Positions 1 to 42,646 of a stretch of 49,161 bases of DNA are shown here, piece by piece; positions within the stretch are counted from its first letter, which is position 1, and each line of letters opens with the position of its first letter. Source of the stretch: a virus. Lineage: Duplodnaviria > Caudoviricetes. The notes below the pieces were generated by a model. It did no database searches and had not been told where the DNA came from. It worked only from the letters and a program-made list of their open reading frames with translations. The stretch spans positions 1-49,161 of the IMG/VR virus record IMGVR_UViG_3300032103_000318. One strand, written 5' to 3'. A program made the position numbers and the translations under genes.

Positions 1-75
1 GGAGTATATCAGGGGGAGTCGGGAGTATATCAGGGGGAGTCGGGAGTATATCAGGGGGAGTCGGGAGTATATCAG
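1..75 (+). repeat. 21-bp tandem repeat GGAGTATATCAGGGGGAGTCG (3 full units plus a partial), continuing the array at the right end
   Basis: Three exact units at 1-63 and a partial at 64-75; degenerate units at about 49064-49161. Confidence 0.95.
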
Positions 76-93
76 GAGGGTTCTGAGAAATGA
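1..93 (+). CDS. C-terminal part of the junction-spanning ORF that starts at 48822: (GVYQGES)n-GVYQEGSEK-stop
   Basis: Frame 1 is open from base 1 to TGA at 91-93, which overlaps the endolysin ATG (ATGA). It encodes the same heptapeptide as the open frame at the right end. Confidence 0.65.
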   Translation, partial: GVYQGESGVYQGESGVYQGESGVYQEGSEK

Positions 94-800
94 CTAGATT
101 GATGCTGAGGTTTAGTCGGGATTGCCCGATAACGTCTGGGCCTGAGACTAAGCAGGTTTTAGAGGGCTACTCGGTTTTTGTAGATGCCTATGTCCAAGTC
201 GGGGACAAAGTTAGGTTTACGTTGGCTCTGGGGGCTTACCCGGAGTATTGGATTTGGACGTTTCATAGCTCTGGGCGGAATACCTGGGAAGCTCCAGCGA
301 GTGCTGTGGTAGATCCCTCAGGGGTTGGGAATGGAGAGCCTAAGGATCAGGGGGGTCAGGGAGGTTCAGGGCTAATTATTCGGTTGCCGGGGTTTAGTGG
401 GACGTACCGGGCTAATCAGGCTATTTTGCCAGGGGGTAGCTTTACGTGGGGAGAAGCCCTGCATGCCTCAAAAACCAGCTACAGGGTGCCAGATAGCCCT
501 AAGGTAGTACACAACATTATTAGGGTGGCCGGGGTGATGCAAGAGGTTAGAGATAGGTTTAGGGTGCCGATTAGGGTGAATTCGTGGTATCGAGATCCCG
601 TCACTAATCGTCGGGTTGGGGGAGCGTCTCAGTCTAGGCATCTGGTGGGGGATGCAGTGGATTTTGTAGTCAGCGGGGTTAGCCCAGGTAAGGTGTATCG
701 GGAATTAGATGATTGGTGGGGGAATCAGGGAGGGTTGGCTAGCTCCAGCACGTTTACCCATATTGATGGACGGGGTTACAAGGCTAGGTGGGCCTACTAG
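90..800 (+). CDS. Endolysin, peptidase M15A-like Zn peptidase with N-terminal accessory domain
   Basis: C-terminal motifs NSWYR..N..VGGA..S.H..G.A.D and FTHIDGRG typical of Peptidase_M15_3. Confidence 0.85.
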   Translation: MTRLMLRFSRDCPITSGPETKQVLEGYSVFVDAYVQVGDKVRFTLALGAYPEYWIWTFHSSGRNTWEAPASAVVDPSGVGNGEPKDQGGQGGSGLIIRLPGFSGTYRANQAILPGGSFTWGEALHASKTSYRVPDSPKVVHNIIRVAGVMQEVRDRFRVPIRVNSWYRDPVTNRRVGGASQSRHLVGDAVDFVVSGVSPGKVYRELDDWWGNQGGLASSSTFTHIDGRGYKARWAY

Positions 801-843
801 ATGAGAAAACCTTAGGATGGTTTGGTGTTTCCGAGACTAGATG

Positions 844-886
844 AGAGAAAACCCCGGCTTCTTTATGGGATGACCGGGGTTTCTCT
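844..886. terminator. Probable bidirectional intrinsic terminator between convergent genes
   Basis: AAACCCCGG (849-857) pairs with CCGGGGTTT (874-882). Confidence 0.6.
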
Positions 887-940
887 TTAGCTCGGAGGGT
901 ATCTCAGGGAGCTTTGGAGGGCTCGGAGGTATCTCAGAGG

Positions 941-1126
941 TTAGGCTCTTAACCACCCCGCGTACTTGGAATAGTGAAGCCGGGTAGTTTTGCCCTCCCT
1001 GGTTGTGCATACAGCAATAGTCAGGGTGGTTTCCGACCCTTTGTACTGCTCGTTCATATAAACCAAGAGTTGCCCGATGTAGACAGGCAGGGTCAGATAT
1101 TGAGCGCCGGGTTCTAAATAGGTCAT
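941..1126 (-). CDS. Hypothetical protein (61 aa)
   Basis: ATG start with GAGG upstream and an extended -10 TGCTATAAT on the minus strand near 1153-1161. Confidence 0.5.
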   Translation of the reverse strand: MTYLEPGAQYLTLPVYIGQLLVYMNEQYKGSETTLTIAVCTTREGKTTRLHYSKYAGWLRA

Positions 1127-1153
1127 GGAGGAGTCCTCTATATACTAAAAAGA

Positions 1154-1759
1154 TTATAGCAGGATTTCAGATAGGCTGTCTATGGCTTCTTGGAGTTGGT
1201 ATTCTAGGGCGGGTTCCTGAGAATCTACGTAGAGGGCGAGAAACCAGTTACCGGGGCTAGGACAGGAGAGGTAGAAGTGAGAGCCGGTTATGGTCTTTTC
1301 CAGGTCGAAGTAGTTGGCCTGGTTGGTTTTCTCTAGGGCAAAACAGGCATCTAGGCGCAGGGAGTCGTACAGAGGTTTGTACTCTGTGCTGGGGAGGTAG
1401 ATGGTCTGGAAGCCGAGAGGTAGGGGCGGGTCGTAAGGGCGGTGATGCTCGAATAGGATTACGCGGTGATTGCCCTGATAGACCCCAAAGATGGCTCGGT
1501 TTGCTCCATCATTGACCAGGGATTGGAGGGTAGAGCGGATGGCCTCTACTTGCTCACGGGAGTAGCTGTGGGTTACCTGGCGATTCCCAAAGTTCAATAG
1601 GAAGGTGATGAGTTCTTCTTCATTGCGATAGGCGACCCACAGAGGATAGCCCGTAAACCCAACGAAAAGACCCATTAACGACAAAATAATCAAGGATCGA
1701 AGGTTATCCTTGATTAGGGGAAGTTTATCTAGGAGTGAGAGGAAAAAATTTAGGCCCAT
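1154..1759 (-). CDS. Membrane protein with one TM helix and a C-terminal GAF-like domain; possible T4 T-type holin
   Basis: TM segment LIILSLMGLFVGFTGYPLWVAY, C-terminal FYLSCP, preceded by the late motif, near the endolysin. The holin call is inference. Confidence 0.4.
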   Translation of the reverse strand: MGLNFFLSLLDKLPLIKDNLRSLIILSLMGLFVGFTGYPLWVAYRNEEELITFLLNFGNRQVTHSYSREQVEAIRSTLQSLVNDGANRAIFGVYQGNHRVILFEHHRPYDPPLPLGFQTIYLPSTEYKPLYDSLRLDACFALEKTNQANYFDLEKTITGSHFYLSCPSPGNWFLALYVDSQEPALEYQLQEAIDSLSEILL

Positions 1760-1778
1760 ACCTTTGTGCCAGGAAATT

Positions 1779-1788
1779 GGCTAGGTAT
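1779..1788 (-). promoter_or_regulatory. Putative late promoter motif ATACCTAGCC
   Basis: Starts 29 nt upstream of the ATG at 1759, the same spacing as the copies at 23587 and 42828. Confidence 0.7.
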
Positions 1789-1837
1789 AAGCCTAAATTT
1801 GTGATTCTGGTCTGGATTAGGAGTGATCCATGTCACT

Positions 1838-1873
1838 CTACTTTGGTTCTACTTTGGTTCTACTTTGGTTCTA
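1838..1873. repeat. 11-bp tandem repeat CTACTTTGGTT x3
   Basis: Exact units at 1838, 1849 and 1860. Confidence 0.9.
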
Positions 1874-1876
1874 CAC

Positions 1877-2074
1877 CTATTCTGTGTAGGTGTAATCAAA
1901 TGTGCATTCAGGGAAGTGAAGCTCCGTGTAAGCTCGTATAGCTTTTAGGTCGCTGAATACTTTACTTACCACAGTGAAGTGACAGAACACGTCGATCCCT
2001 GTTAGATCATTTCCCTCCTCTACGAGAAGAGGGGTAGCTATGCTTTCTTCCCGGTTTATGGTCAGTAGGTACAT
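1877..2074 (-). CDS. Hypothetical protein (65 aa)
   Basis: ATG ORF in the small minus-strand gene cluster. Confidence 0.5.
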   Translation of the reverse strand: MYLLTINREESIATPLLVEEGNDLTGIDVFCHFTVVSKVFSDLKAIRAYTELHFPECTFDYTYTE

Positions 2075-2134
2075 GTTACTTGTGGATAGTGGGACAGGTG
2101 GGCTTTTCCCGGAAGGGTTCCGGGATTAGTTGGG

Positions 2135-2494
2135 TTAGAGACTGAACTCTAGTTTCCAATGGCGATTATCTATCTCCCTCTTAACCGCTACCCTTGATGA
2201 CTCAAGGGCTTGCTTTAGGAAAGGCTGGAAGTCACCCTCCGTGATGTCGGAGAAGTCAACCAGCAATAGGCTAGTCTGTCTACCTAGCCATATGCACACC
2301 CGATTAGTATAAACCTGGCGGGATACGGTCAACCCCGCCTTTTCGGGGAATTCTGCATTAAGGGCGAACTCTAGAAAATCCCCAGCACAGTATGCCAGGG
2401 TTTTGTCTTTAAGCTCAAGGGTTTTTTCTTCCCCTACGGCTATCATGTTGTAGCCTGAGGTGGTCATGGACTTTGAAACTGAGATTGCGTACAT
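2135..2494 (-). CDS. Hypothetical protein (119 aa)
   Basis: ATG with strong RBS AAGGAG upstream on the minus strand. Confidence 0.7.
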   Translation of the reverse strand: MYAISVSKSMTTSGYNMIAVGEEKTLELKDKTLAYCAGDFLEFALNAEFPEKAGLTVSRQVYTNRVCIWLGRQTSLLLVDFSDITEGDFQPFLKQALESSRVAVKREIDNRHWKLEFSL

Positions 2495-2884
2495 CGGTCT
2501 TCTCCTTAGTGTGGTCAGTGGTTGAATCTGGACTTACTTTCCTTTGAGGTTGGCCTAATCTTAAGCCTCACTGACCCGCTTGCTACGCTTCGAACGCTTG
2601 TCACCGCTACAGTTTGTTTAAGCTGTAAACCATAGTTTCAACGCTATGGCCGGGTTATCCTCTGTATTTCGACCTTATCGTGTTTCCGTTTGGGCTGAAA
2701 CCTAGTTACGGTGAAGGGTTTATGTCTTGCCCTGCTCACCTAAATCCGAACTCTTAACGACAAGGTGTACTCCAGAATGCCAGATTATATTTTTTTTTTT
2801 CTCTTTACTGCCTCTCGTTGTCTACCAGGGCTACCGCGGGATTTTCACCGGCTTCGGAGGGTTTTCTCTCCCTCCGATAAATCT

Positions 2885-2912
2885 AATATAGCACGATTTT
2901 TGTTAGTTGCAA
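2885..2912 (-). promoter_or_regulatory. Sigma70-type promoter, leftward
   Basis: Minus strand TTGCAA-N16-TATATT with extended -10 TG. Confidence 0.55.
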
Positions 2913-2931
2913 CCCTCTTTACAAAACTTTA

Positions 2932-3032
2932 GGGAGAGGAGAGGGCGATCGGTGGGAGAGGGGAGGAGGATCGGTGGGAGAGGGGAGGAGGATCGGTGGG
3001 AGAGGAGAGGGCGATCGGTGGGAGAGGGGAGG
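2932..3032 (+). repeat. 22-bp G-rich tandem repeat (4 units plus a partial) between divergent promoters
   Basis: GGGAGAGGAGAGGGCGATCGGT / GGGAGAGGGGAGGAGGATCGGT units at 2932, 2954, 2976 and 2998. Confidence 0.9.
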
Positions 3033-3071
3033 TGTGCTAAAATATTAGTGCCTAATATAGGAGGGGGTAAA

Positions 3072-3845
3072 ATGATAGATGATGGATTTGAGATCCAGGT
3101 ATTAAGCTCTACAGCTAATCCTCAATTGGTGAGTTACTTGGCGATGCACCAGGATTATTCCGAGGGCTTTGTGGGGGATTTGGTGGGGGATGGGCAGGAA
3201 GAAGGCTTTGTGAGGGATCCTTTCCGAGATGGTTTTTTGGGAGAAAGGGTCGCCGGGGAAAGATTGGTTCGGTTGTGCCTGAGTCGGGGACACTGGGGGG
3301 TTATTGAACATCCTCAGATGGTGGTAGCGGTGAAAGGATTCCCCCACAGCACGATGCAGCAGTTACGGACACACCGGCATCTGAGTTTTGATGTGCAGAG
3401 TGGGCGCTATACGGGTAAACGGTTGGTGGATTTTGTGAAGGGTGCTGACGATCATATGGGGGTTGAGGATTTGTTTTGGGTTCGCAAGCCAGGGGTGTAC
3501 GTTGACCGGATGGGTAATCGGTTGGTTTGGAATGCCCTAGATCGGGAGAGGGAGTATCAGCGGCTAATCACGGTGTGTCAGCAATATGCAGAGGCGGTAG
3601 ATGAGGGGATGCCCTATGAGATGGCGCGGGATCTGTATATCCCGTACTGTGTCCGGCAGAATTTTGTGATGTCGGGGAACCTCCGGGCTATTCTGCATCT
3701 TATGGAGCTTAGGGGCACGGCTGATGCAGAACTGGAGTGCCAGGAATTTACACGTCTGATGAAAGAAGTGGTGAGGGATTGGGTTCCAGAGGTGTTTGAA
3801 TGGTGGGAAAAGGTCAGGGATGGTAAGAATAGGAGGTCACCGTAA
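3072..3845 (+). CDS. thyX: Flavin-dependent thymidylate synthase
   Basis: GHWGVIEH and QQLRTHRHLSFDVQSGRY (ThyX motif, cyanobacterial type). Start moved to ATG 3072 after RBS GGAGG and extended -10 TGCTAAAAT. Confidence 0.93.
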   Translation: MIDDGFEIQVLSSTANPQLVSYLAMHQDYSEGFVGDLVGDGQEEGFVRDPFRDGFLGERVAGERLVRLCLSRGHWGVIEHPQMVVAVKGFPHSTMQQLRTHRHLSFDVQSGRYTGKRLVDFVKGADDHMGVEDLFWVRKPGVYVDRMGNRLVWNALDREREYQRLITVCQQYAEAVDEGMPYEMARDLYIPYCVRQNFVMSGNLRAILHLMELRGTADAELECQEFTRLMKEVVRDWVPEVFEWWEKVRDGKNRRSP

Positions 3846-3885
3846 GATGGCTAGGTTAGGGGTGATGGTTGGGTTGGTGTTTTTG
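3843..3885 (+). repeat. 43-bp direct repeat, copy 1
   Basis: TAAGATGGCTAGGTTAGGGGTGATGGTTGGGTTGGTGTTTTTG, identical to 5746-5788. Confidence 0.95.
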
Positions 3886-4179
3886 GGGATTGCCCTGGGG
3901 ATTCCTGAGAAGGCATTGGGCGAGGCTAGCAGATCTTGTGATTTGGCTATTGAGCGAGAATTACAGGTGGTACCGCGGCATTCTAGGCGGTTTACTGAGC
4001 GGGTTCTAACCACGGTGATAGAGGAGGAGATGAGGGAGGGAGCAGCTAGGGTGTATATTAGGCAGCAGATTAGGAATAGAGCCACTACATTCAGGGTGAG
4101 GCTGTCTGAGGATAACGTGGAGGGGATGGTCGATCGGGCGATCGGAGCAGTTAGGCGTTTAAGGAGAGGAGCATGTTAG
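3847..4179 (+). CDS. Exported or membrane-anchored hypothetical protein
   Basis: ATG 3847 just after the thyX stop; signal-peptide-like MARLGVMVGLVFLGIALG. Confidence 0.7.
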   Translation: MARLGVMVGLVFLGIALGIPEKALGEASRSCDLAIERELQVVPRHSRRFTERVLTTVIEEEMREGAARVYIRQQIRNRATTFRVRLSEDNVEGMVDRAIGAVRRLRRGAC

Positions 4180-5345
4180 TTGAGTGTTTGCCGGTTCTTT
4201 ATGCAAGTCTGGCTCTGAGTCACTTTACGGTTCAGTTAGCGCTGGCCATATGGGGGAGGTCGAAGGGCTTGGTTAATGGGTTTAGCGGGGATGAGCGAGT
4301 GCTGGTGATTGTGCCAGGGTATCGAGAACGGGAAGACTCTATAGAAAAGACAGTGGAAAGCTGCGTAAGGGCATGTGAGGGCTTCAAAAGAGCCACGGTA
4401 GTTTATGTGGAAGATGATAGGGCTAGGGATTTGGGGGAAGTGTGCTCTCGGTGGGGTGACCGGGTGGAATTTTTGGCAGTGGGACGGAATGTGGGGAAGC
4501 GGAGGGCTCAGGCTTTTGCTTATCGGTGGTATAGGGAGAGGTACGGGGTGCCTGATTTCGTGATCACGGTGGACAGCGATACCTTGGTGGAACGGAGGGC
4601 TTTTGAGGGCTTGGTGTTTAAGGATCCGGGGATAGGGGCAGTGACGGGGAATATAACAGTGAGGCCAAAGGATAATTTTTTGAGGCGATTAATTAGTCTC
4701 AGGTACTTTCTGGCTTTTAATCTAGAGAGGCAGAGTCAATCGGTGGGGGGTCAGGTTTTGTGCTGTTCCGGGCCTCTATCGTGCTACCGGGGGGAATTGT
4801 GGAACAAGGTGTTAGAGGACTATGAAACCCAAATGTTTAGGGGGAGGGAGTGTACGTTTGGGGACGATCGACATCTGACTAATTTAGTGATTAGGGAAGG
4901 GTATAAAACGATGTATAACCATAGGGCACTGGCCTATACGTCTGCCCCTGCTGATTTGGGGACGTATATTCGTCAGCAATACCGATGGACTAAGAGTTTC
5001 TTTAGAGAGGCGCTAGTGATGGTGGGGTATGGCAGAAAGCTAAATGGGTATACTTGGTGGGAGATCAGTGTTGCCCTAATAATGCCTTTGTTGCTAGTGG
5101 TAAATATTGGGGTTATGGCGGTGATAGTAGCCCCTGAGACTCCGTTTGTGCTGGTCAGGTATGCAGGGATAGTGATTGGGATGGCTTGGCTACGGTCTAT
5201 TTTTGGGGTGGTGGTGGATGGGTTTAATCGGAAGGCGGATTATTTTTATTTTCCAGCTTTTGCAGCGCTGTCTCTGGTGTTGCTGCTACCTCTGAAGATC
5301 AAGGCTTTGTTTAATTTGACGGATACTAGGTGGGGGACACGATGA
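4173..5345 (+). CDS. Processive GT2 glycosyltransferase of the class I hyaluronan synthase / NodC family
   Basis: VIVPGYRE, NVGKR, TVDSDT, CCSGPLSCYR, GDDRHLTN, QQYRW, C-terminal TM helices and terminal WGTR. Confidence 0.88.
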   Translation: MLVECLPVLYASLALSHFTVQLALAIWGRSKGLVNGFSGDERVLVIVPGYREREDSIEKTVESCVRACEGFKRATVVYVEDDRARDLGEVCSRWGDRVEFLAVGRNVGKRRAQAFAYRWYRERYGVPDFVITVDSDTLVERRAFEGLVFKDPGIGAVTGNITVRPKDNFLRRLISLRYFLAFNLERQSQSVGGQVLCCSGPLSCYRGELWNKVLEDYETQMFRGRECTFGDDRHLTNLVIREGYKTMYNHRALAYTSAPADLGTYIRQQYRWTKSFFREALVMVGYGRKLNGYTWWEISVALIMPLLLVVNIGVMAVIVAPETPFVLVRYAGIVIGMAWLRSIFGVVVDGFNRKADYFYFPAFAALSLVLLLPLKIKALFNLTDTRWGTR

Positions 5346-5725
5346 TGTTGGATTGTTATGTGGAGGTTGAGCGGTGCATAGAGGTAGAGGTGGTTGATCG
5401 GGCGGATTGGTTACGGGTTACGGAAGGGTTTCAGGGTAGGCAACGGGTTGAGGCAGGGTTTGAGTGGGCGGGGGGAGTGTCTGGGCTGATGGTGGATGTA
5501 GCCGAGGGAGACGTTAGACCTGTTCTTGGCTATCGATTTAGTACGGAGGTTGTGGAAGGGTTGAGTGTTCAGGGTTTGGTAGGTGTGGGGTATCAGTTTG
5601 GCCACGATAGTCGAATGGTGGTACCCGTTAATGTAGGGTTGAGCTATCGGCAGGACGGGTTTAGTTGTGGGGCACGGGTGGGGCTACGGTCGGCTGGAGT
5701 AAGTTGTAGAGCGTTACTACCCTAA
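5342..5725 (+). CDS. Hypothetical beta-strand-rich protein, possibly outer-membrane beta-barrel-like
   Basis: ATGA overlap with the GT2 stop; alternating strands VLGYRF, VGVGYQF, VGLSYR; no obvious signal peptide. Confidence 0.5.
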   Translation: MMLDCYVEVERCIEVEVVDRADWLRVTEGFQGRQRVEAGFEWAGGVSGLMVDVAEGDVRPVLGYRFSTEVVEGLSVQGLVGVGYQFGHDSRMVVPVNVGLSYRQDGFSCGARVGLRSAGVSCRALLP

Positions 5726-5745
5726 GTTAGGGGTGATAGAGAGGT

Positions 5746-5788
5746 TAAGATGGCTAGGTTAGGGGTGATGGTTGGGTTGGTGTTTTTG
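5746..5788 (+). repeat. 43-bp direct repeat, copy 2
   Basis: Identical to 3843-3885. Confidence 0.95.
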
Positions 5789-5914
5789 TTAGAGTGGTAT
5801 GATGGCACGGGTTATAGGACTCTGTATTTTGATCAGAGGGTCGATTGTGAAACCCGTGCCCTGATGCTAAGACGATCGTTGGTCTATATAAGGAAATGGT
5901 GCGAAGATGTCTAG
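5750..5914 (+). CDS. Small exported F-x5-C-x17-C protein, paralog 1 (54 aa, absent from the ORF track)
   Basis: MARLGVMVGLVFLLEWYDGTGYRTLYFDQRVDCETRALMLRRSLVYIRKWCEDV; RBS GAGG; similar to the 5907 ORF. Confidence 0.75.
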   Translation: MARLGVMVGLVFLLEWYDGTGYRTLYFDQRVDCETRALMLRRSLVYIRKWCEDV

Positions 5915-6125
5915 ATTGTTGATTGGGTTATTGGTTGGGTTGGGCTTGAGTTTGGTGGGGACGGGCGCTGGTTGGGCTAGGTCGGTGTGGATTTTGGAAT
6001 GGCACTTCGATGGAGTACGTTCAGAGGTGTTTTACAACTATGACCAGTGCAATCGGAAGGCCCATGAGCTAGAGGGCAAGGGTATCTATGTGAGTCGGTG
6101 GTGTATCCTGGAATGGCGGCCTTAA
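5907..6125 (+). CDS. Small exported F-x5-C-x17-C protein, paralog 2
   Basis: Signal peptide followed by LEWHFDG..FYNYDQC-x17-C. Confidence 0.8.
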   Translation: MSRLLIGLLVGLGLSLVGTGAGWARSVWILEWHFDGVRSEVFYNYDQCNRKAHELEGKGIYVSRWCILEWRP

Positions 6126-6229
6126 GGAGAGGGGTGGTGAGGGGGTGATCGGAGGGTGGGAAAGGGCTGGGAAAGGGCTGGAAGATCTGTAAGTGATTGA
6201 TAACGTTCTGTACTTAGGAGATTAGGATC

Positions 6230-6622
6230 ATGGCTTATTCGTTGTTTGAAAGACCCAAAGAAGAGGATGTAGAGGATCTGACCCTGATAGAGGGTCGGGA
6301 AGATGAGTGGGGCTGGGATGATGATGAGGATGAAGATAGTGGCCCACCCACCCTGCCGGAGTTTCCTGAGGAGGAGATGTCTACACGAGGGTTTCTTAGG
6401 GGGTTGGCTTCTCTGGGGATGGTGCTGGTGTGGTTAGGTCTGGCGGGGGCTAGTGGGGCTAGTGAGTCGGGCTGGAAGATGCGATATACTCATACCCCCG
6501 GTAACCAAGATGGCGTAACGGCCATCTTCCCTAACGAGGATCAGTGCCAGCAATTTTCCAATCAGGTTAGAGCAACTGGGGGAACAATCCTGCAAAAATG
6601 CCATCAGATTTGGTTTATCTAG
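6230..6622 (+). CDS. F-x5-C-x17-C protein, paralog 3, with acidic N-terminal extension (possible internal start at 6377)
   Basis: Acidic first 49 aa, a hydrophobic segment, then FPNEDQC-x17-C. Confidence 0.75.
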   Translation: MAYSLFERPKEEDVEDLTLIEGREDEWGWDDDEDEDSGPPTLPEFPEEEMSTRGFLRGLASLGMVLVWLGLAGASGASESGWKMRYTHTPGNQDGVTAIFPNEDQCQQFSNQVRATGGTILQKCHQIWFI

Positions 6623-6625
6623 CTT

Positions 6626-6660
6626 AAGGAGGGATCATCTAGTTGGGTGACCCTCCTTTT
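6626..6660 (+). terminator. Intrinsic terminator
   Basis: AAGGAGGG pairs with CCCTCCTT, followed by a T tract, right after the 6622 stop. Confidence 0.65.
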
Positions 6661-6840
6661 GTTTAGTGGGGTTAGGGGTTTGTTTAGGGGGGTCAGTAAG
6701 AATCCCCTAGATCGGGAAATTGGCAAGTTGGAGTGGACTATGGAGTTCACAGTTAGCGCGTAGTTAGTCAGTCTAGGGGGGCTCTAAATCTGCCCCTAGC
6801 CTATTTTGGAAAATCGCAGAATTATGGAGGTGTGAATAAG

Positions 6841-6987
6841 ATGACTGGACTAAATCGGACTGAGGCTAAGATCGTTGCCATTAAGGTAGCGATGGAACAG
6901 ATTAATGACCCGGATAAACGGGTAGAGGCTAAGGAAGTGATCGAGGCGGCTAAAGAAGCCGTAGAGTCAGTGGAGCGAAACAGCTAA
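6841..6987 (+). CDS. Small helical hypothetical protein (48 aa)
   Basis: RBS GGAGG; MTGLNRTEAKIVAIKVAMEQ...; TAATG overlap with the next ORF. Confidence 0.6.
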   Translation: MTGLNRTEAKIVAIKVAMEQINDPDKRVEAKEVIEAAKEAVESVERNS

Positions 6988-7724
6988 TGGAATACGTTTT
7001 GGTGGTACTGAATACAGAAGACCTAGACGAGACAAGGCTGAGCGACTGCACGATAAGAGCTAGGAGGAGAGCGCTCTATGGCTTTATCTGGCCCGCTTGT
7101 AAACAGCACTATATCGAGGTATAGGGGGAGAGGGTTTCTGGGGGGGCAGAGGATAATACCCTCCAGCAGCAAGATTTTCCCGTGATCGAGCGAGCTTATT
7201 GCAATCCTCCTGGTGGAAAGCTCAAGAATCGCTCTCTACAATCCCTGTTTTGGCAGTGGTGTCTAGATAATTATGAGGTGGGCAACATTAGTAGCCTAGT
7301 GTTCTTGTGCTTTAATTTGAACGCGGGCCCGGCATTGAACCCCCACATGCTCAGGTTTCCCAGAGTATACACAACGAAAGCAGCAACTTCCCCGGATGTC
7401 TCTACGTCAGGTCGCTTGAAGTATGTTTCACTCAGGGGGAAGTTGATTGAGGGTCTGGAGCGAGATCTGGGGTTAGAGGGTATGGCTAGGGATAAAAAGA
7501 TAGTTAGCCTACTTAAGCTGCCTGTCCACAAATCACTGGGGGATGATGTTTTGGTTCAGGAGTCTAACCCAACTCATCCAGGCATGTTTATCCTTCTACC
7601 AAATTTTTTGAATTATTGGGGTGAGACTGATCTGTTTCGGATTTACTTCGAGCAATTTGGCACGTATGCCCCCCAGGTCACGATCACTGGGGTTAAGGGC
7701 TGGGTTCCTTTAAGTGAGGGCTAG
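6987..7724 (+). pseudogene. Phage Dam-like N6-adenine DNA methyltransferase, N-terminally truncated or interrupted by an in-frame TAG at 7122-7124
   Basis: AYCNPPGG resembles catalytic motif IV. The 6987 ORF is in the same frame as the 7182 ORF with one TAG between them; no intact DPA-type motif I. Confidence 0.45.
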
Positions 7725-7727
7725 GAG

Positions 7728-7759
7728 TTGCCCCATACCTAGCCCAATTGTGCTACCAT
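7728..7759 (+). promoter_or_regulatory. Sigma70-like promoter (TTGCCC...TGCTACCAT) overlapping an ATACCTAGCC motif at 7735-7744
   Basis: Both elements are visible upstream of ATG 7790. Confidence 0.55.
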
Positions 7760-7789
7760 AAGGGTATAGACGTTTATCTCTGGGTAATT

Positions 7790-8752
7790 ATGGACATCGC
7801 TCAAAAACAGACCATGCCTGACCAATCTGATCAAGGGTGGTGGTTTAGCCGTCACGGTATTTTCGGTAGGGCAGAAATGGCCGCCATCAATGCAGCATGG
7901 TCTGTTTTTGAGGGCGGTGATCCTATGGGCACTAACGTTGGCTCTTCATGCTGGGGGATTCAGGACGCTCTAGGTTATCTGCGGAAGACTAAGCTGTATC
8001 AAGAGTTCGTCAAAATTTGTCGAAAACACGGTAAAGACCAGCCCGATGATCCCATTAAGGTATTGTCTTATCAATGCGTTCTGACCCAGTTTGGTGCTTC
8101 CTCCAATTTCCTTACAACCCGCGTCACCCCCACTCTGGCGGCATATCGTCGGTCTGATTTAGCTCAGGATGTACAGAACTTCTTTCAGAGGGCATCTCGT
8201 CGCCCACGATACGACTCAACGCTATATCACAGCCACCGTCAAAACGTGTCTAAGCCTTTTTACAACAGCCGAACCCTTGAAAATTCGACGGAGGGAGCTA
8301 ACCGGTTTCGTCGTTTCCGAAAGACCGGGATCTTGGATCGAGTCTTTGAAATGTTTTCTGAAACCACCAAAGGAGAGGTTTCTGCGGAACAAGAGAATTG
8401 GGCTCCCTATTGTGGACTCATGACGAAAATGAACGACATGTCCTTTAGCACTGAATCGAAAGACTTGATCAAGGAAGGTGTGAAGCGCTTTTTAGATAAG
8501 CATGGGATGGAGATTAGGGCAGACTTTGAAGACTTCTTGAAATATACGTTGGTCTGGGAGGTGAATAAAAAAATCAGAGAGAGTTTTGAGCCCGGAGAAC
8601 TAAGTGAATACATCACTGGTCTAATGACTGTGATCCGGAATGCTACATCTTCAATGGATGAGGAATACAAAGAGCTAGGGCTGGACATGTACAGATCTTT
8701 TGATAAGTTGACGAGGCGGGAACCTGACTGGGAAAAATTTTACTCTGGCTAG
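7790..8752 (+). CDS. Hypothetical protein (about 320 aa)
   Basis: Long ORF with no recognised motif; ATG 7790 preferred because the TTG start at 7748 lies within the promoter. Confidence 0.8.
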   Translation: MDIAQKQTMPDQSDQGWWFSRHGIFGRAEMAAINAAWSVFEGGDPMGTNVGSSCWGIQDALGYLRKTKLYQEFVKICRKHGKDQPDDPIKVLSYQCVLTQFGASSNFLTTRVTPTLAAYRRSDLAQDVQNFFQRASRRPRYDSTLYHSHRQNVSKPFYNSRTLENSTEGANRFRRFRKTGILDRVFEMFSETTKGEVSAEQENWAPYCGLMTKMNDMSFSTESKDLIKEGVKRFLDKHGMEIRADFEDFLKYTLVWEVNKKIRESFEPGELSEYITGLMTVIRNATSSMDEEYKELGLDMYRSFDKLTRREPDWEKFYSG

Positions 8753-9199
8753 CTAACCCGCTGACTTACAACTAAATAACCGCTCAGGCTCAGTAGGGTT
8801 TCCTATCTGACCCATTTTGCTTTGCCCATTTCCCTCTGACTTCTAAACGTTACCCCTGTATCTTCCTTATTTCCCCTAAACCACCCCTGGATCTGTCTGC
8901 GGTATGTGTGAGAAGTGGAGTTACCCCACACACCCTAGAGAGGGGGACATGCTAAATGTCAGGTTATCACTAGGTTAAGACATCCACCCTTCCCCCCAGC
9001 CATCCCCCGAAGTTACCCAGCCATCCCCCGGAATCTCCCGCAGGAAGACCCTTCCCCTACCTCAATAAAACGTGTTAAAGTAAAGGGGTAGTTTAAGGAT
9101 TATGTCAGAATGAAACTTACATACACCTACATCGCCCACCCCTAATACCCAGACCATTGCATAATCCAAGGTTCTCTTAACGGGAAACCGTTTACTATT

Positions 9200-9634
9200 T
9201 TGTGCGAACACTCTTACTATGTGTCCGAATCTCTGGGCAAGTACAGGAGCAAGGTAGAAGAGGAAAACTACCACCTGTACTTTGTCATAAATAGGCAATT
9301 CTTGACCTTCTTGTGTCATGAGCTAGCCCCCACTAATTTCCGATTTTCCACATTTACAGGGGTATCCCGTCACCTAAGATCAAAGGTAGGGGATACCCAA
9401 TTCTTGTGGAGACCGCTATCCCATGAGGAGATTCAAAAGCATCTCCTACACCTAATAGAGTATGCGTGCCAAAAAGAGGCCGCACTTTTGCCTAGCAGTC
9501 GGTTCTCAGGGGGGGTGGGGAAGCTGCAAGAGGCCCAGCTAGTTCTACACCCCGTTAACAAAGCAATCAGGCCATTGCCTTATTTCCCGATTGCTTTCAA
9601 TTTCAAAGCTAAAATGGTACAATCAATCAAGTAG
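9200..9634 (+). CDS. Hypothetical protein
   Basis: 144-aa ORF; start uncertain. Confidence 0.55.
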   Translation: MCEHSYYVSESLGKYRSKVEEENYHLYFVINRQFLTFLCHELAPTNFRFSTFTGVSRHLRSKVGDTQFLWRPLSHEEIQKHLLHLIEYACQKEAALLPSSRFSGGVGKLQEAQLVLHPVNKAIRPLPYFPIAFNFKAKMVQSIK

Positions 9635-40300: not shown

Positions 40301-42646
40301 ATGGACAAGGCGCTGATTAGGGAAGTCGTTAATGCTGGCCTAAAGGTTGAGCAGGTTAATCTCAGTCTTGTCCAGAAAAATTTAGCGACGGCTCGAAATC
40401 AGCTTAAAAAAGAACTGCTCAAAAGCCCTGAAACCCTGGCGCACAAAGGAAAGTTGATTAGCTTACTTGATCAATACCTAGGGGAAGTCGATCGGGCTAT
40501 TTCCGAGCAATTTGATTCTGGTCTGGCCCTAAAAGAAGGGTTGAGGGAAGCCAAATTTGTGGTAGGTTCTGAGGCGGCGATCCCTAAGGAATCGGATTTC
40601 TGGGGGTGGACGCCTACCTTACCGATTGAAGCAATTGGGCTAGCCAATGCCGAGATGGCCACACTCATCAAGGCCACAACCTCTGAACTTAAGGAGAAGG
40701 TTCTGAGGACGGTTCAGGTTGGGCTGGCTCAGGGGGCTTCCATACAGCAAATTCAAGACCAAATCCTGGGTACGGGATTAAAAGGGTTGCAGGGTAAAGA
40801 TGGGGTTTTCAGAAGCGCCACAAACCGGGCTGAAACCCAAGCTAGAACGATTAGCAATGAGTTGATTAATCGGGGGGCTTTGATTGGGTATAACCAAATT
40901 GATCAAATCTGTCCTGAGCTTGGTCTGAAGAAAGTTTGGCAGACCGTGAGCGATCGCAGAACCTCTGAGACTTGCCAGACATTGGCGGGTCAGGTTAGAG
41001 AGCTAAACCAAGAGTTTTCAGGTAATGGTTGGTCTGGAGCGAATCCCCCCAGTCACCCTAACGCCTACTTACCGGGGCAGCATGTGATAGCGGTACACCC
41101 CGAAGTCCTGAGCCGACATAGGTATAATGGGGATGCCGTCAGAATCAAATTGACCAACGGCGTTACTTTGGAAGTCACCGGAGAACACCCGGTACTCACC
41201 CCTGATGGATTTGTTGAAAGCCGTTTCCTCAGAGAAGGCCAGCAAGTCTTCTATAGCCCGTTGGTTGACAAGTTACAGCACTGTTATCCCTCCATAGATA
41301 GCGTTTTTGAGACTAACCAGGCTTTGATAGATAGCCGCATCCCCTGTGAGGATTTAGATAACGGTCTGGCTAAGTTTGAGATCAGGGGCTCAAGCGATAC
41401 AGAAGTTTTACTTAGCCCATCAACGGGATACCCTAGCTTGGTTAGTCGTCTAAATCCTGGGCGACTTTTCGGCAGTGACCAACCCATCCTTGAAAATAAT
41501 TTGGAAGGCTTTCTGAGGTCACATTGGAATTCCGTTTATATGAGGGATTGCCTTTATATATTGAATCCTTTTACGGAGTCCTCTGATATTTCGGGGGGTT
41601 TCTATTTGGTTGAGATCCAAGAAATCCACACGTTTAAGTATTGTGGGCATGTCTATAACTTAACCTCTAAAGATGGGTTGAACGTAGCTAATGGAATTAT
41701 AACTCACAATTGCCGCTCTAGAGTTACGGTGCTTTCTGCGAAATACCAAAAGGAATGGGATGACAGATTTAGGGATGCACCATCTGGCCCACCCCTGCCT
41801 AAGCCTAACCTGGGTGTCTCCAGTCGATTGGTTTCTGAGAACGCTATCGAGCCCCCTAGATCCCCCGCTTTGAATCCTGACAGATTATTTGGGGTGGACG
41901 CAGAGCGTATTAATGTGGCCCTAGAGAAGACGGCAAAAATGTCGCCTGAGATTAGCGAGTCTTTAGCCAGGTTGACTGACTATGCCAACCGGGAAAAGAT
42001 AGCCACCGTCTACTCCGACCGGTTTATGACGGACGATGCAATTATTGGTTTAATTGATGAATTGGTTCGGGCTGATTTTATTCCATCCGACCGTCGATCT
42101 GCTTTCTTTGCTCAGCGGGACGTAGTTTTTCGGATGCAACCAACTGTCGGAGGGCAGACTATTGAAGGTTTTAAGATGGTTCAAATAAATAGCCGGACTG
42201 AGTTTTTTGAGCGGATGGTTGAAAAGGGCAAAATCGATACTTTGGAGATTATAAAAGACTATAAAAGAACGTTGAAAAATGTGGTGCATGTACCGGAATC
42301 CAAACGATCTTTGGGTTTGCCTAGTAACGCGATTGTAAATGGATACGGGTCTATTACTTTCAGCGACGAACTGAGGACTGCCGAAACCTATGTGCATGAG
42401 ATAGGCCATTTAGTCCACTTCAAGGTCAGGGCTAAACTAGGCTCTGAGTATCGCTTACCCAAGTCCTTTGATTACACTCAAAATGTTAGTCAATATGGGG
42501 CTAGTAAGACCCCCGAAGATAATAACTATAAGGAAACTTTTGCAGAGGCTTTCACTTTTTATGTGATGGATAAAGAAGGGTTAAAAGAGGTGGCACCAAG
42601 CTTGTTTGACTGGGTTGAAAGGGCACTTATCTTAGCGGGGTATTAG
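40301..42646 (+). CDS. MuF / SPP1 gp7-like minor head protein with intein and C-terminal HExxH metallopeptidase
   Basis: RAETQARTI, KKVWQTVSDRRTSETC, PPSHPN|intein|CRS, HEIGH, VSQYG, ETFAEAF. Confidence 0.88.
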   Translation: MDKALIREVVNAGLKVEQVNLSLVQKNLATARNQLKKELLKSPETLAHKGKLISLLDQYLGEVDRAISEQFDSGLALKEGLREAKFVVGSEAAIPKESDFWGWTPTLPIEAIGLANAEMATLIKATTSELKEKVLRTVQVGLAQGASIQQIQDQILGTGLKGLQGKDGVFRSATNRAETQARTISNELINRGALIGYNQIDQICPELGLKKVWQTVSDRRTSETCQTLAGQVRELNQEFSGNGWSGANPPSHPNAYLPGQHVIAVHPEVLSRHRYNGDAVRIKLTNGVTLEVTGEHPVLTPDGFVESRFLREGQQVFYSPLVDKLQHCYPSIDSVFETNQALIDSRIPCEDLDNGLAKFEIRGSSDTEVLLSPSTGYPSLVSRLNPGRLFGSDQPILENNLEGFLRSHWNSVYMRDCLYILNPFTESSDISGGFYLVEIQEIHTFKYCGHVYNLTSKDGLNVANGIITHNCRSRVTVLSAKYQKEWDDRFRDAPSGPPLPKPNLGVSSRLVSENAIEPPRSPALNPDRLFGVDAERINVALEKTAKMSPEISESLARLTDYANREKIATVYSDRFMTDDAIIGLIDELVRADFIPSDRRSAFFAQRDVVFRMQPTVGGQTIEGFKMVQINSRTEFFERMVEKGKIDTLEIIKDYKRTLKNVVHVPESKRSLGLPSNAIVNGYGSITFSDELRTAETYVHEIGHLVHFKVRAKLGSEYRLPKSFDYTQNVSQYGASKTPEDNNYKETFAEAFTFYVMDKEGLKEVAPSLFDWVERALILAGY
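41063..41710 (+). mobile_element. Intein / Hint domain (216 aa) starting with Ala
   Basis: AYLPGQ start, block B VTGEHPV, HVYNL, ANGIITHN followed by Cys. Confidence 0.88.

Follow-up and report, generated by a model that had tools for sequence, protein, structure and literature searches.

The locus analysed here raises two linked questions, namely whether a phage encodes an enzyme of the hyaluronan synthase (HAS) type and whether the polymer made by such an enzyme could leave a host with two membranes. The window, i.e. the whole stretch of 49,161 nt under analysis, comprises the entire virus record, which is rated 87% complete and linear. Both record ends lie in the same 21-nt tandem repeat, suggesting a circular assembly path, and G-rich tandem repeats of 21, 22 and 11 nt occupy positions 1–79, 2932–3041, 1837–1874 and the last 90 bases. 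The plus strand shows a strong G skew (up to 0.53) at positions 1–7000, compared to about zero at 8,000–30,000. Terminase, portal, tape measure and head proteins as well as a Pol-gamma-type polymerase are encoded. The major capsid protein shares 50.6% identity with that of the Acaryochloris phage A-HIS1, the 11 phage records that match the polymerase all belong to cyanophages, and among the 80 best relatives of the endolysin the named genomes are nearly all cyanobacterial, with the best genomic relatives mostly from Nodosilinea, Leptolyngbya and Halomicronema. These data bear out the cyanophage context given in the initial annotation; by its sequence, the genome is that of an A-HIS1-like phage, and a filamentous cyanobacterium is its likely host because of the relatives of capsid, polymerase and endolysin. 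No tyrosine integrase was found in the phage genome, and an IMG/VR scan for capsid relatives, outside which near-identical records possibly lie, returned none. Elsewhere, a perfect 18-nt inverted repeat (7800–7817 and 7895–7912, 77 nt spacer) lies inside the ORF at 7748–8752, and a MuF-type head morphogenesis protein (40301–42646) carries an intein-like insert as well as a C-terminal stretch that weakly matches the ATLF domain, neither of which reaches the Pfam cut-off.

The locus itself is a cassette of three genes on the plus strand, encoding an arginine-rich protein of 110 aa (3847–4179) predicted to be a periplasmic helper, a class I HAS-type GT2 synthase of 390 aa (4173–5345), assigned from motifs, fold and residues, and a leaderless beta protein of 127 aa (5342–5725), which by homology to the barrels of two metagenome loci, L042 and L043, is a shortened relative of a PgaA/BcsC-type outer-membrane barrel and which is predicted from a structure model to form an 8-strand barrel. 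The first ORF overlaps the synthase ATG by 7 nt, with GGAGAGGAG as ribosome site ahead of this ATG, and the synthase stop overlaps the next ATG by 4 nt (ATGA, 5342–5345), which fits the translational coupling of the three genes proposed previously. Missed at that stage was an exact 43-nt direct repeat which brackets the cassette. Its left copy (3843–3885, plus strand, 100% identity) contains the thyX stop codon and the first 13 codons of the ORF at 3847, while the right copy (5746–5788, plus strand) supplies the first 13 codons of an ORF at 5750–5914. Recombination between the two copies would excise the cassette cleanly. Assembly unitigs of the source run break at the repeat, and their mean depths of 17.7 for the cassette versus 21.2–21.6 for the flanks, which as per-contig means cannot show deletion, fit a cassette integrated in most genomes. 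The cassette genes are absent from five thyX-related viral loci and from 36.5 kb of A-HIS1, where a tblastn search with the synthase gave no match. Promoter and terminator scans returned site counts no higher than in shuffled sequences. Downstream of the cassette follow three small paralogues with a Cys pair (5750–5914, 5907–6125 and 6230–6622; BLASTP E 1e-5 to 1e-6), for which no family matches were found. Two of them carry full leaders; the leader of ORF 5750 comprises only the 13 repeat-copied residues, beyond which the ORF is a paralogue of ORF 5907.

Every motif of the class I HAS-like set listed in the initial annotation is present in the uninterrupted 390-aa ORF: DSD (134–136), CCSGPLSCYR (197–206), GDDRHLTN (230–237), QQYRW (268–272) and the terminal WGTR (387–390). 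In Pfam the protein falls in GT2 and chitin-synthase-like families, and its sequence matches in the PDB are hyaluronan synthases only (five distinct sequences, E about 1e-37). The AlphaFold (AF2) model of the synthase (pLDDT 85.5, pTM 0.86) finds chlorovirus or Xenopus HAS in all of its 13 best PDB structure matches (TMq 0.83–0.88), compared to 0.70 or less for chitin and cellulose synthases together and 0.60 or less for chitin synthases. Sequence and structure matches therefore support the earlier assignment to the processive GT2 enzymes of the HAS/NodC superfamily. For Xenopus HAS1, the acceptor-site residues and two IFH1 arginines that contact GlcA (near GlcA-2) are named in PMC11750622. 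Mapped through a PDB-chain alignment, with a 13-residue offset between the chain and the numbering of that paper, all seven acceptor-site residues (Y178, F182, C197, D232, R233, W272, S275) and both GlcA-contacting arginines (R177, R186) are identical in the phage enzyme. At the positions of R177 and F182, three annotated NodC proteins have E and C, and GEDR in place of GDDR; in place of each of the NodC motifs EYWLACNEER, CGP, GEDR and RWARSTFRD, the synthase has the HAS-type version. Judged from these alignments, the diagnostic active-site residues are HAS-type and not NodC-type. The synthase additionally keeps every invariant column of a 96-sequence alignment, and it carries the clade-specific changes EDD for DDG and RYF for RYW.

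Of 7,999 candidates scored in a protein search, 296 were relatives, including seven with 41–48% identity. Together with L042 and L043, two of the 80 loci kept, these seven form a clade of nine rows (support 100) which is distinct from NodC, giant-virus HAS and B. cereus HasA; of 135 rows, 33 that were duplicate, partial or mis-called had been removed ahead of the first tree. The phylogenetic comparison with HAS and NodC suggested in the initial annotation thus resolves a clade of its own, which is long-branched and separate from every characterised HAS, but gives a support of only 35 for the sister group, be it HAS or NodC. The clade profile found no match in 401 cyanobacterial genomes, with the best few candidates per genome scored, a genome scan over all species gave 30 matches, all outside the clade, and IMG/VR scans, beyond which near-identical records possibly lie, returned no clade members. 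For only two of the nine members is the sequence context sufficient for an assignment as phage or phage-like. More distant HAS-like GT2 enzymes are encoded on other viral contigs (L001, 7989–9140; L002, 7794–9233; L006 and L008–L010, about 7800–9215; L007, 8001–9179), L001 also carrying RecT and HNH genes and L002 an integrase. These enzymes come from three separate branches, and phages appear to have gained HAS-like enzymes several times; since they occur in other phage contigs, phage carriage as such is not unique. No barrel gene was found beside the distant enzymes of these contigs. A search of 50,697 phage records in GenBank with the synthase gave no more than three GT2 matches, all weak, and in the literature, covered mostly at abstract level with subscription papers largely outside coverage, no phage-encoded HAS was found.

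What the synthase makes can be approached through its substrates and through the gene neighbourhoods of its relatives. UDP-glucose dehydrogenase is absent from the phage record, in agreement with the lack of sugar-nucleotide precursor genes noted before, and is encoded in all four candidate-host-type genomes. Around bacterial relatives (39 loci, 61 of 109 listed ORFs scanned), UDP-glucose dehydrogenase adjoins the synthase in 5 loci and a HylP hyaluronidase is found in 3, where the HylP-type gene lies directly upstream of the HAS-like synthase (L025, a Saccharimonadales genome, 4010–5956; L055, 7989–9941; L074, 3–1541). These neighbours, which hint at a uronic-acid polymer, belong to distant relatives of about 31–36% identity, cluster in a small number of related clades and are lacking in 31 of the 39 loci. 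A nucleotide-sugar dehydrogenase is likewise encoded near a synthase relative on a Lactococcus plasmid. HAS-type synthases also occur in archaea (L024, L027, L031 and L034, from Natrialba, Natrinema, Bathyarchaeota and Thermoproteota), with UDP-glucose dehydrogenase adjoining the enzyme in L034. One DUF2334 protein, which we take to be deacetylase-like, is encoded among the neighbour ORFs of the 39 loci.

The predicted product is likely hyaluronan-like. We consider it unlikely that the product of the processive synthase is instead another polymer, for instance a GlcNAc homopolymer resembling chitin or a chain of glucose and glucuronate as in the pneumococcal type 3 capsule. The product of a GT2 enzyme is not safely readable from sequence, and the long branch that separates the clade from characterised HAS as well as the EDD and RYF changes would be compatible with another product, as would the likeness of the capsular synthase Cps3S to HAS-like proteins described in PMC10939387. 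Against this stand the two retained GlcA-contacting arginines, the much poorer fit of chitin synthases to the model and the absence, at E 1e-6, of any NodB-type deacetylase from the 61 neighbour ORFs of the 39 loci.

The second question, export, concerns the two genes flanking the synthase. The 110-aa protein has 18 Arg and 13 acidic residues in its 85-aa mature part, a Cys31/Cys110 pair and an N-terminal hydrophobic segment which is likely a signal peptide or anchor, in line with the exported upstream protein described initially. No family match was found for it, and among 99 candidates its profile recovered only itself and the L043-type protein. No TPR match was obtained anywhere in the cassette; this small protein may stand in for a periplasmic TPR scaffold. 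Tat hitch-hiking was rejected, the upstream leader having no twin arginine.

The gene order is conserved in L043, which encodes a secreted arginine-rich protein of 113 aa with a Cys pair in the same position (BLASTP E 7e-4), a synthase (46% identity) and a 292-aa barrel with signal peptide. This 69.8-kb contig is phage-like, with two endolysins, a helicase and methyltransferases, and no structural gene was found in the 21 kb seen. In L042, the synthase (63%) is followed by a 256-aa barrel homologue. Overall, a barrel is linked to six of the nine clade members, three pairs being read directly and three derived indirectly from equal-sized source contigs (2,442; 2,738 and 3,488; 15,998); for P0005, P0007 and P0008, a barrel partner was not identified. 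The L043 barrel resembles PgaA_barrel, YaiO and BcsC C-terminal barrels (features 0.94–0.98; TM 0.83–0.87), and a barrel profile search of 1.84 billion proteins returned 13 relatives, whose profile matches PgaA (4y25) at E 0.003. The third gene of the relatives is thus predicted, from profile and model, to encode a PgaA/BcsC-type outer-membrane barrel. Barrel homologues were found in 10 of 301 cyanobacterial genomes and adjoin a cellulose-synthase-like gene and DUF3131 in three of the five loci examined; the cassette therefore seems to combine a foreign synthase with a barrel of cyanobacterial type in a chimera. GenBank phages gave no barrel match, and an IMG/VR scan returned none, near-identical records possibly lying outside it. 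The barrel homologue P0135 (406 aa), extended at its N-terminus by a long helical part and with a Cys pair at its C-terminus, shows no evident signal peptide and is possibly an intermediate between TPR-barrel exporters and stand-alone barrels.

The window departs from this family pattern. Its 127-aa ORF is all-beta with an alternating hydrophobic pattern, as expected for the amphipathic beta-strand protein described initially, and contains four Cys, but in its alignment with the L042 protein (27%, E 4e-6) it corresponds to the C-terminal half, with 127 aa versus 256 aa in L042 and 292 aa in L043. The SDGN and YWxP motifs of the family are missing, and while L043 combines full size with a signal peptide, the window ORF is short and has no hydrophobic leader, signal peptides being judged by hydropathy or eye. 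In both the window and L042 an in-frame stop is found just upstream of the barrel start; in the window it precedes the ATG-proximal GTG start region by 12 nt. A frameshift fusion of synthase and barrel was rejected, since window and L042 do not have the barrel in the same frame and since WGTR is cytoplasmic. A homologue search with the 127-aa ORF recovered only itself among 15 candidates. The structure model suggested initially, of moderate confidence (pLDDT 66), shows eight long strands in an OmpA-sized barrel. Its best matches are a designed TMB (Z 11.1), PagL (10.7) and OprF and OmpA (10.6), with rmsd values of 3.0–3.4 over 109–115 residues for these small membrane barrels together and 3.1–3.4 over 110–115 residues for PagL, OprF and OmpA, compared to Z 9.1–9.4 for soluble barrels and 6.9 for PgaA.

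Halved, leaderless and with a predicted eight strands, the ORF is therefore unlikely to be a polymer pore, which makes export through it doubtful. Of the minimal synthesis and export system proposed in the initial annotation, the family-level part is supported by the conserved gene order of the relatives and by the PgaA/BcsC-type barrel which their third gene encodes, whereas the halved leaderless barrel of the window does not support it. Leaderless barrels with the same two Cys pairs are found in the window, in L042 and in P0136, together with synthases which are the window enzyme itself or 48–63% identical to it (L042; P0002, paired with P0136). Since the beta ORF is open, coupled and shares its four Cys with these two other leaderless barrels, its sequence argues for continued selection over simple decay.

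It is quite unlikely, in our estimate, that the cassette of the window is fully functional, with the 127-aa barrel reaching the outer membrane by a non-standard route and still passing or anchoring the polymer, be it as a single protein or as an oligomer. Such a function is favoured by the leaderless barrels with matching Cys pairs that accompany three synthases, by the oxidising compartment that paired Cys suggest and by the membrane barrels among the best model matches. Yet eight-strand barrels have narrow lumens, the model is moderate and soluble barrels follow at Z 9.1–9.4, an in-frame stop directly precedes the start in the window as well as in L042, and the differing barrel frames argue against a shared frameshift fusion.

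The membrane topology of the synthase has to be considered as well. One N-terminal TM is followed by the GT-A domain, interface helices and two further TMs, and the protein ends at the WGTR gating loop. A simple hydropathy scan and the AF2 model show a single N-terminal hydrophobic segment, where B. cereus HasA has two. Also missing is the pair of C-terminal TMs present in viral and vertebrate HAS, so that the enzyme has neither the six TMs of class I-NR, which form a monomeric channel and include two behind the gating loop, nor the four TMs, two of them N-terminal, of class I-R, a class of homodimers that elongate the chain at its reducing end. A homodimer prediction scored 0.00 and was counted neither for nor against. 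In NCBIfam, the best model is NodC (TIGR04242; 222 bits, E 9e-66, residues 40–390), whose cut-off of 550 is not reached, and no nodA or nodB neighbours were found beside the synthase. An action like that of NodC, in which a dead-end cavity would release short cytoplasmic oligosaccharides as signal or decoy, is suggested by the NodC-like length, by this top NCBIfam model and by the few TMs, as in NodC with its dead-end cleft (PMC9795070). It is very unlikely, as every diagnostic motif is HAS-type, the score falls far under the cut-off, nodA and nodB are missing and an oligomer made in the cytoplasm would have no use for a linked outer-membrane barrel. That the cassette is a recently gained passenger being lost, with no effect on the phage, is highly unlikely, since exact flanking repeats permitting clean deletion, the halved barrel, the lower cassette depth and the absence from thyX-related loci and A-HIS1 are countered by a synthase that keeps every invariant alignment column and by depth figures which, as per-contig means, cannot show deletion.

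We propose, at about even chances, that the intact HAS-type synthase likely makes and translocates a hyaluronan-like polymer from host UDP-sugars, and that the halved leaderless barrel likely no longer exports it. The synthase would draw on host UDP-GlcNAc and UDP-glucuronate, processively build a hyaluronan-like chain, as structure and family knowledge suggest, and push it across the inner membrane. Because it has only about three TMs, the channel would presumably be formed with a second subunit; a short streptococcal HAS enzyme functions as a homodimer according to PMC10939387, and a second subunit is therefore a likely way to build the channel. The arginine-rich upstream protein may then guide the anionic chain through the periplasm. 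The full barrel of relatives such as L043 would let the chain out to coat the infected cell, while in the window phage the chain would be retained in the periplasm, pass through a host pore or be released by lysis. Protection of the infected cell against competing phages or grazers while the infection lasts would be the most likely benefit; superinfection exclusion, aggregation and grazer avoidance, the roles offered in the initial annotation, are conceivable. A bolder version, which we put forward tentatively as a possibility, is that a cyanophage lineage assembled two-membrane hyaluronan export from a HAS-type synthase foreign to cyanobacteria and the barrel of cyanobacterial glucan-secretion loci, so that infected cyanobacteria become coated with hyaluronan in the way that chloroviruses coat algae, and that in one branch a leaderless, disulfide-bonded barrel, here with eight strands, still works.

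If true, a HAS-type enzyme that a phage carries along with an outer-membrane pore would extend this class to a new host range and to a new design of export, and phages would add a whole surface polymer to the infected cell, beyond modifying an existing one. The system would provide a bacterial model for why algal viruses make hyaluronan, and a compact three-gene route by which Gram-negative or photosynthetic hosts could secrete polymers of this kind. The barrel series, i.e. full with leader, full without and halved without, offers a natural test of strand and signal loss in outer-membrane barrels.

Among known systems, PBCV-1 HAS and Xenopus HAS1 (PDB 7sp8, 8smn; class I-NR) share the fold, acceptor residues, GlcA arginines and WGT gating loop with the phage synthase, and PBCV-1 HAS is likewise virus-encoded. 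However, these enzymes have six TMs, as described for Xenopus HAS1 in PMC11750622, and continue past WGT, whereas the phage synthase has about three TMs, stops at WGTR, belongs to a separate clade and to a phage of a two-membrane host, and is accompanied by a barrel gene but by no genes for precursors. HasA of class I-R (Streptococcus; for the sequence comparison, a B. cereus candidate) is of similar length and shares the GDDR and QQxRW.KSF.RE motifs, and B. cereus HasA ends one residue after WGT, as does the phage synthase. It differs in its two N-terminal TMs versus one, B. cereus HasA and the phage synthase do not group together in trees, and HasA hosts have one membrane and need no barrel, in contrast to the two-membrane phage host. 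Rhizobial NodC, a chito-oligosaccharide synthase (TIGR04242), resembles the phage enzyme in length and overall layout but has its own motifs, with the phage synthase reaching 222 of 550 bits and having no nodAB. Compared to PgaABCD and BcsABC, the cassette has a HAS-type synthase, a stand-alone barrel without the long TPR arm, halved and leaderless in the window, neither a deacetylase nor a c-di-GMP sensor, and is carried by a phage. We therefore regard it as a real, conserved and apparently undescribed variant of synthase-dependent polymer export, in the window with a doubtful pore beside an intact synthase, which shares with PgaABCD and BcsABC the combination of an inner-membrane GT2 synthase, a periplasmic helper and a PgaA/BcsC-type barrel.
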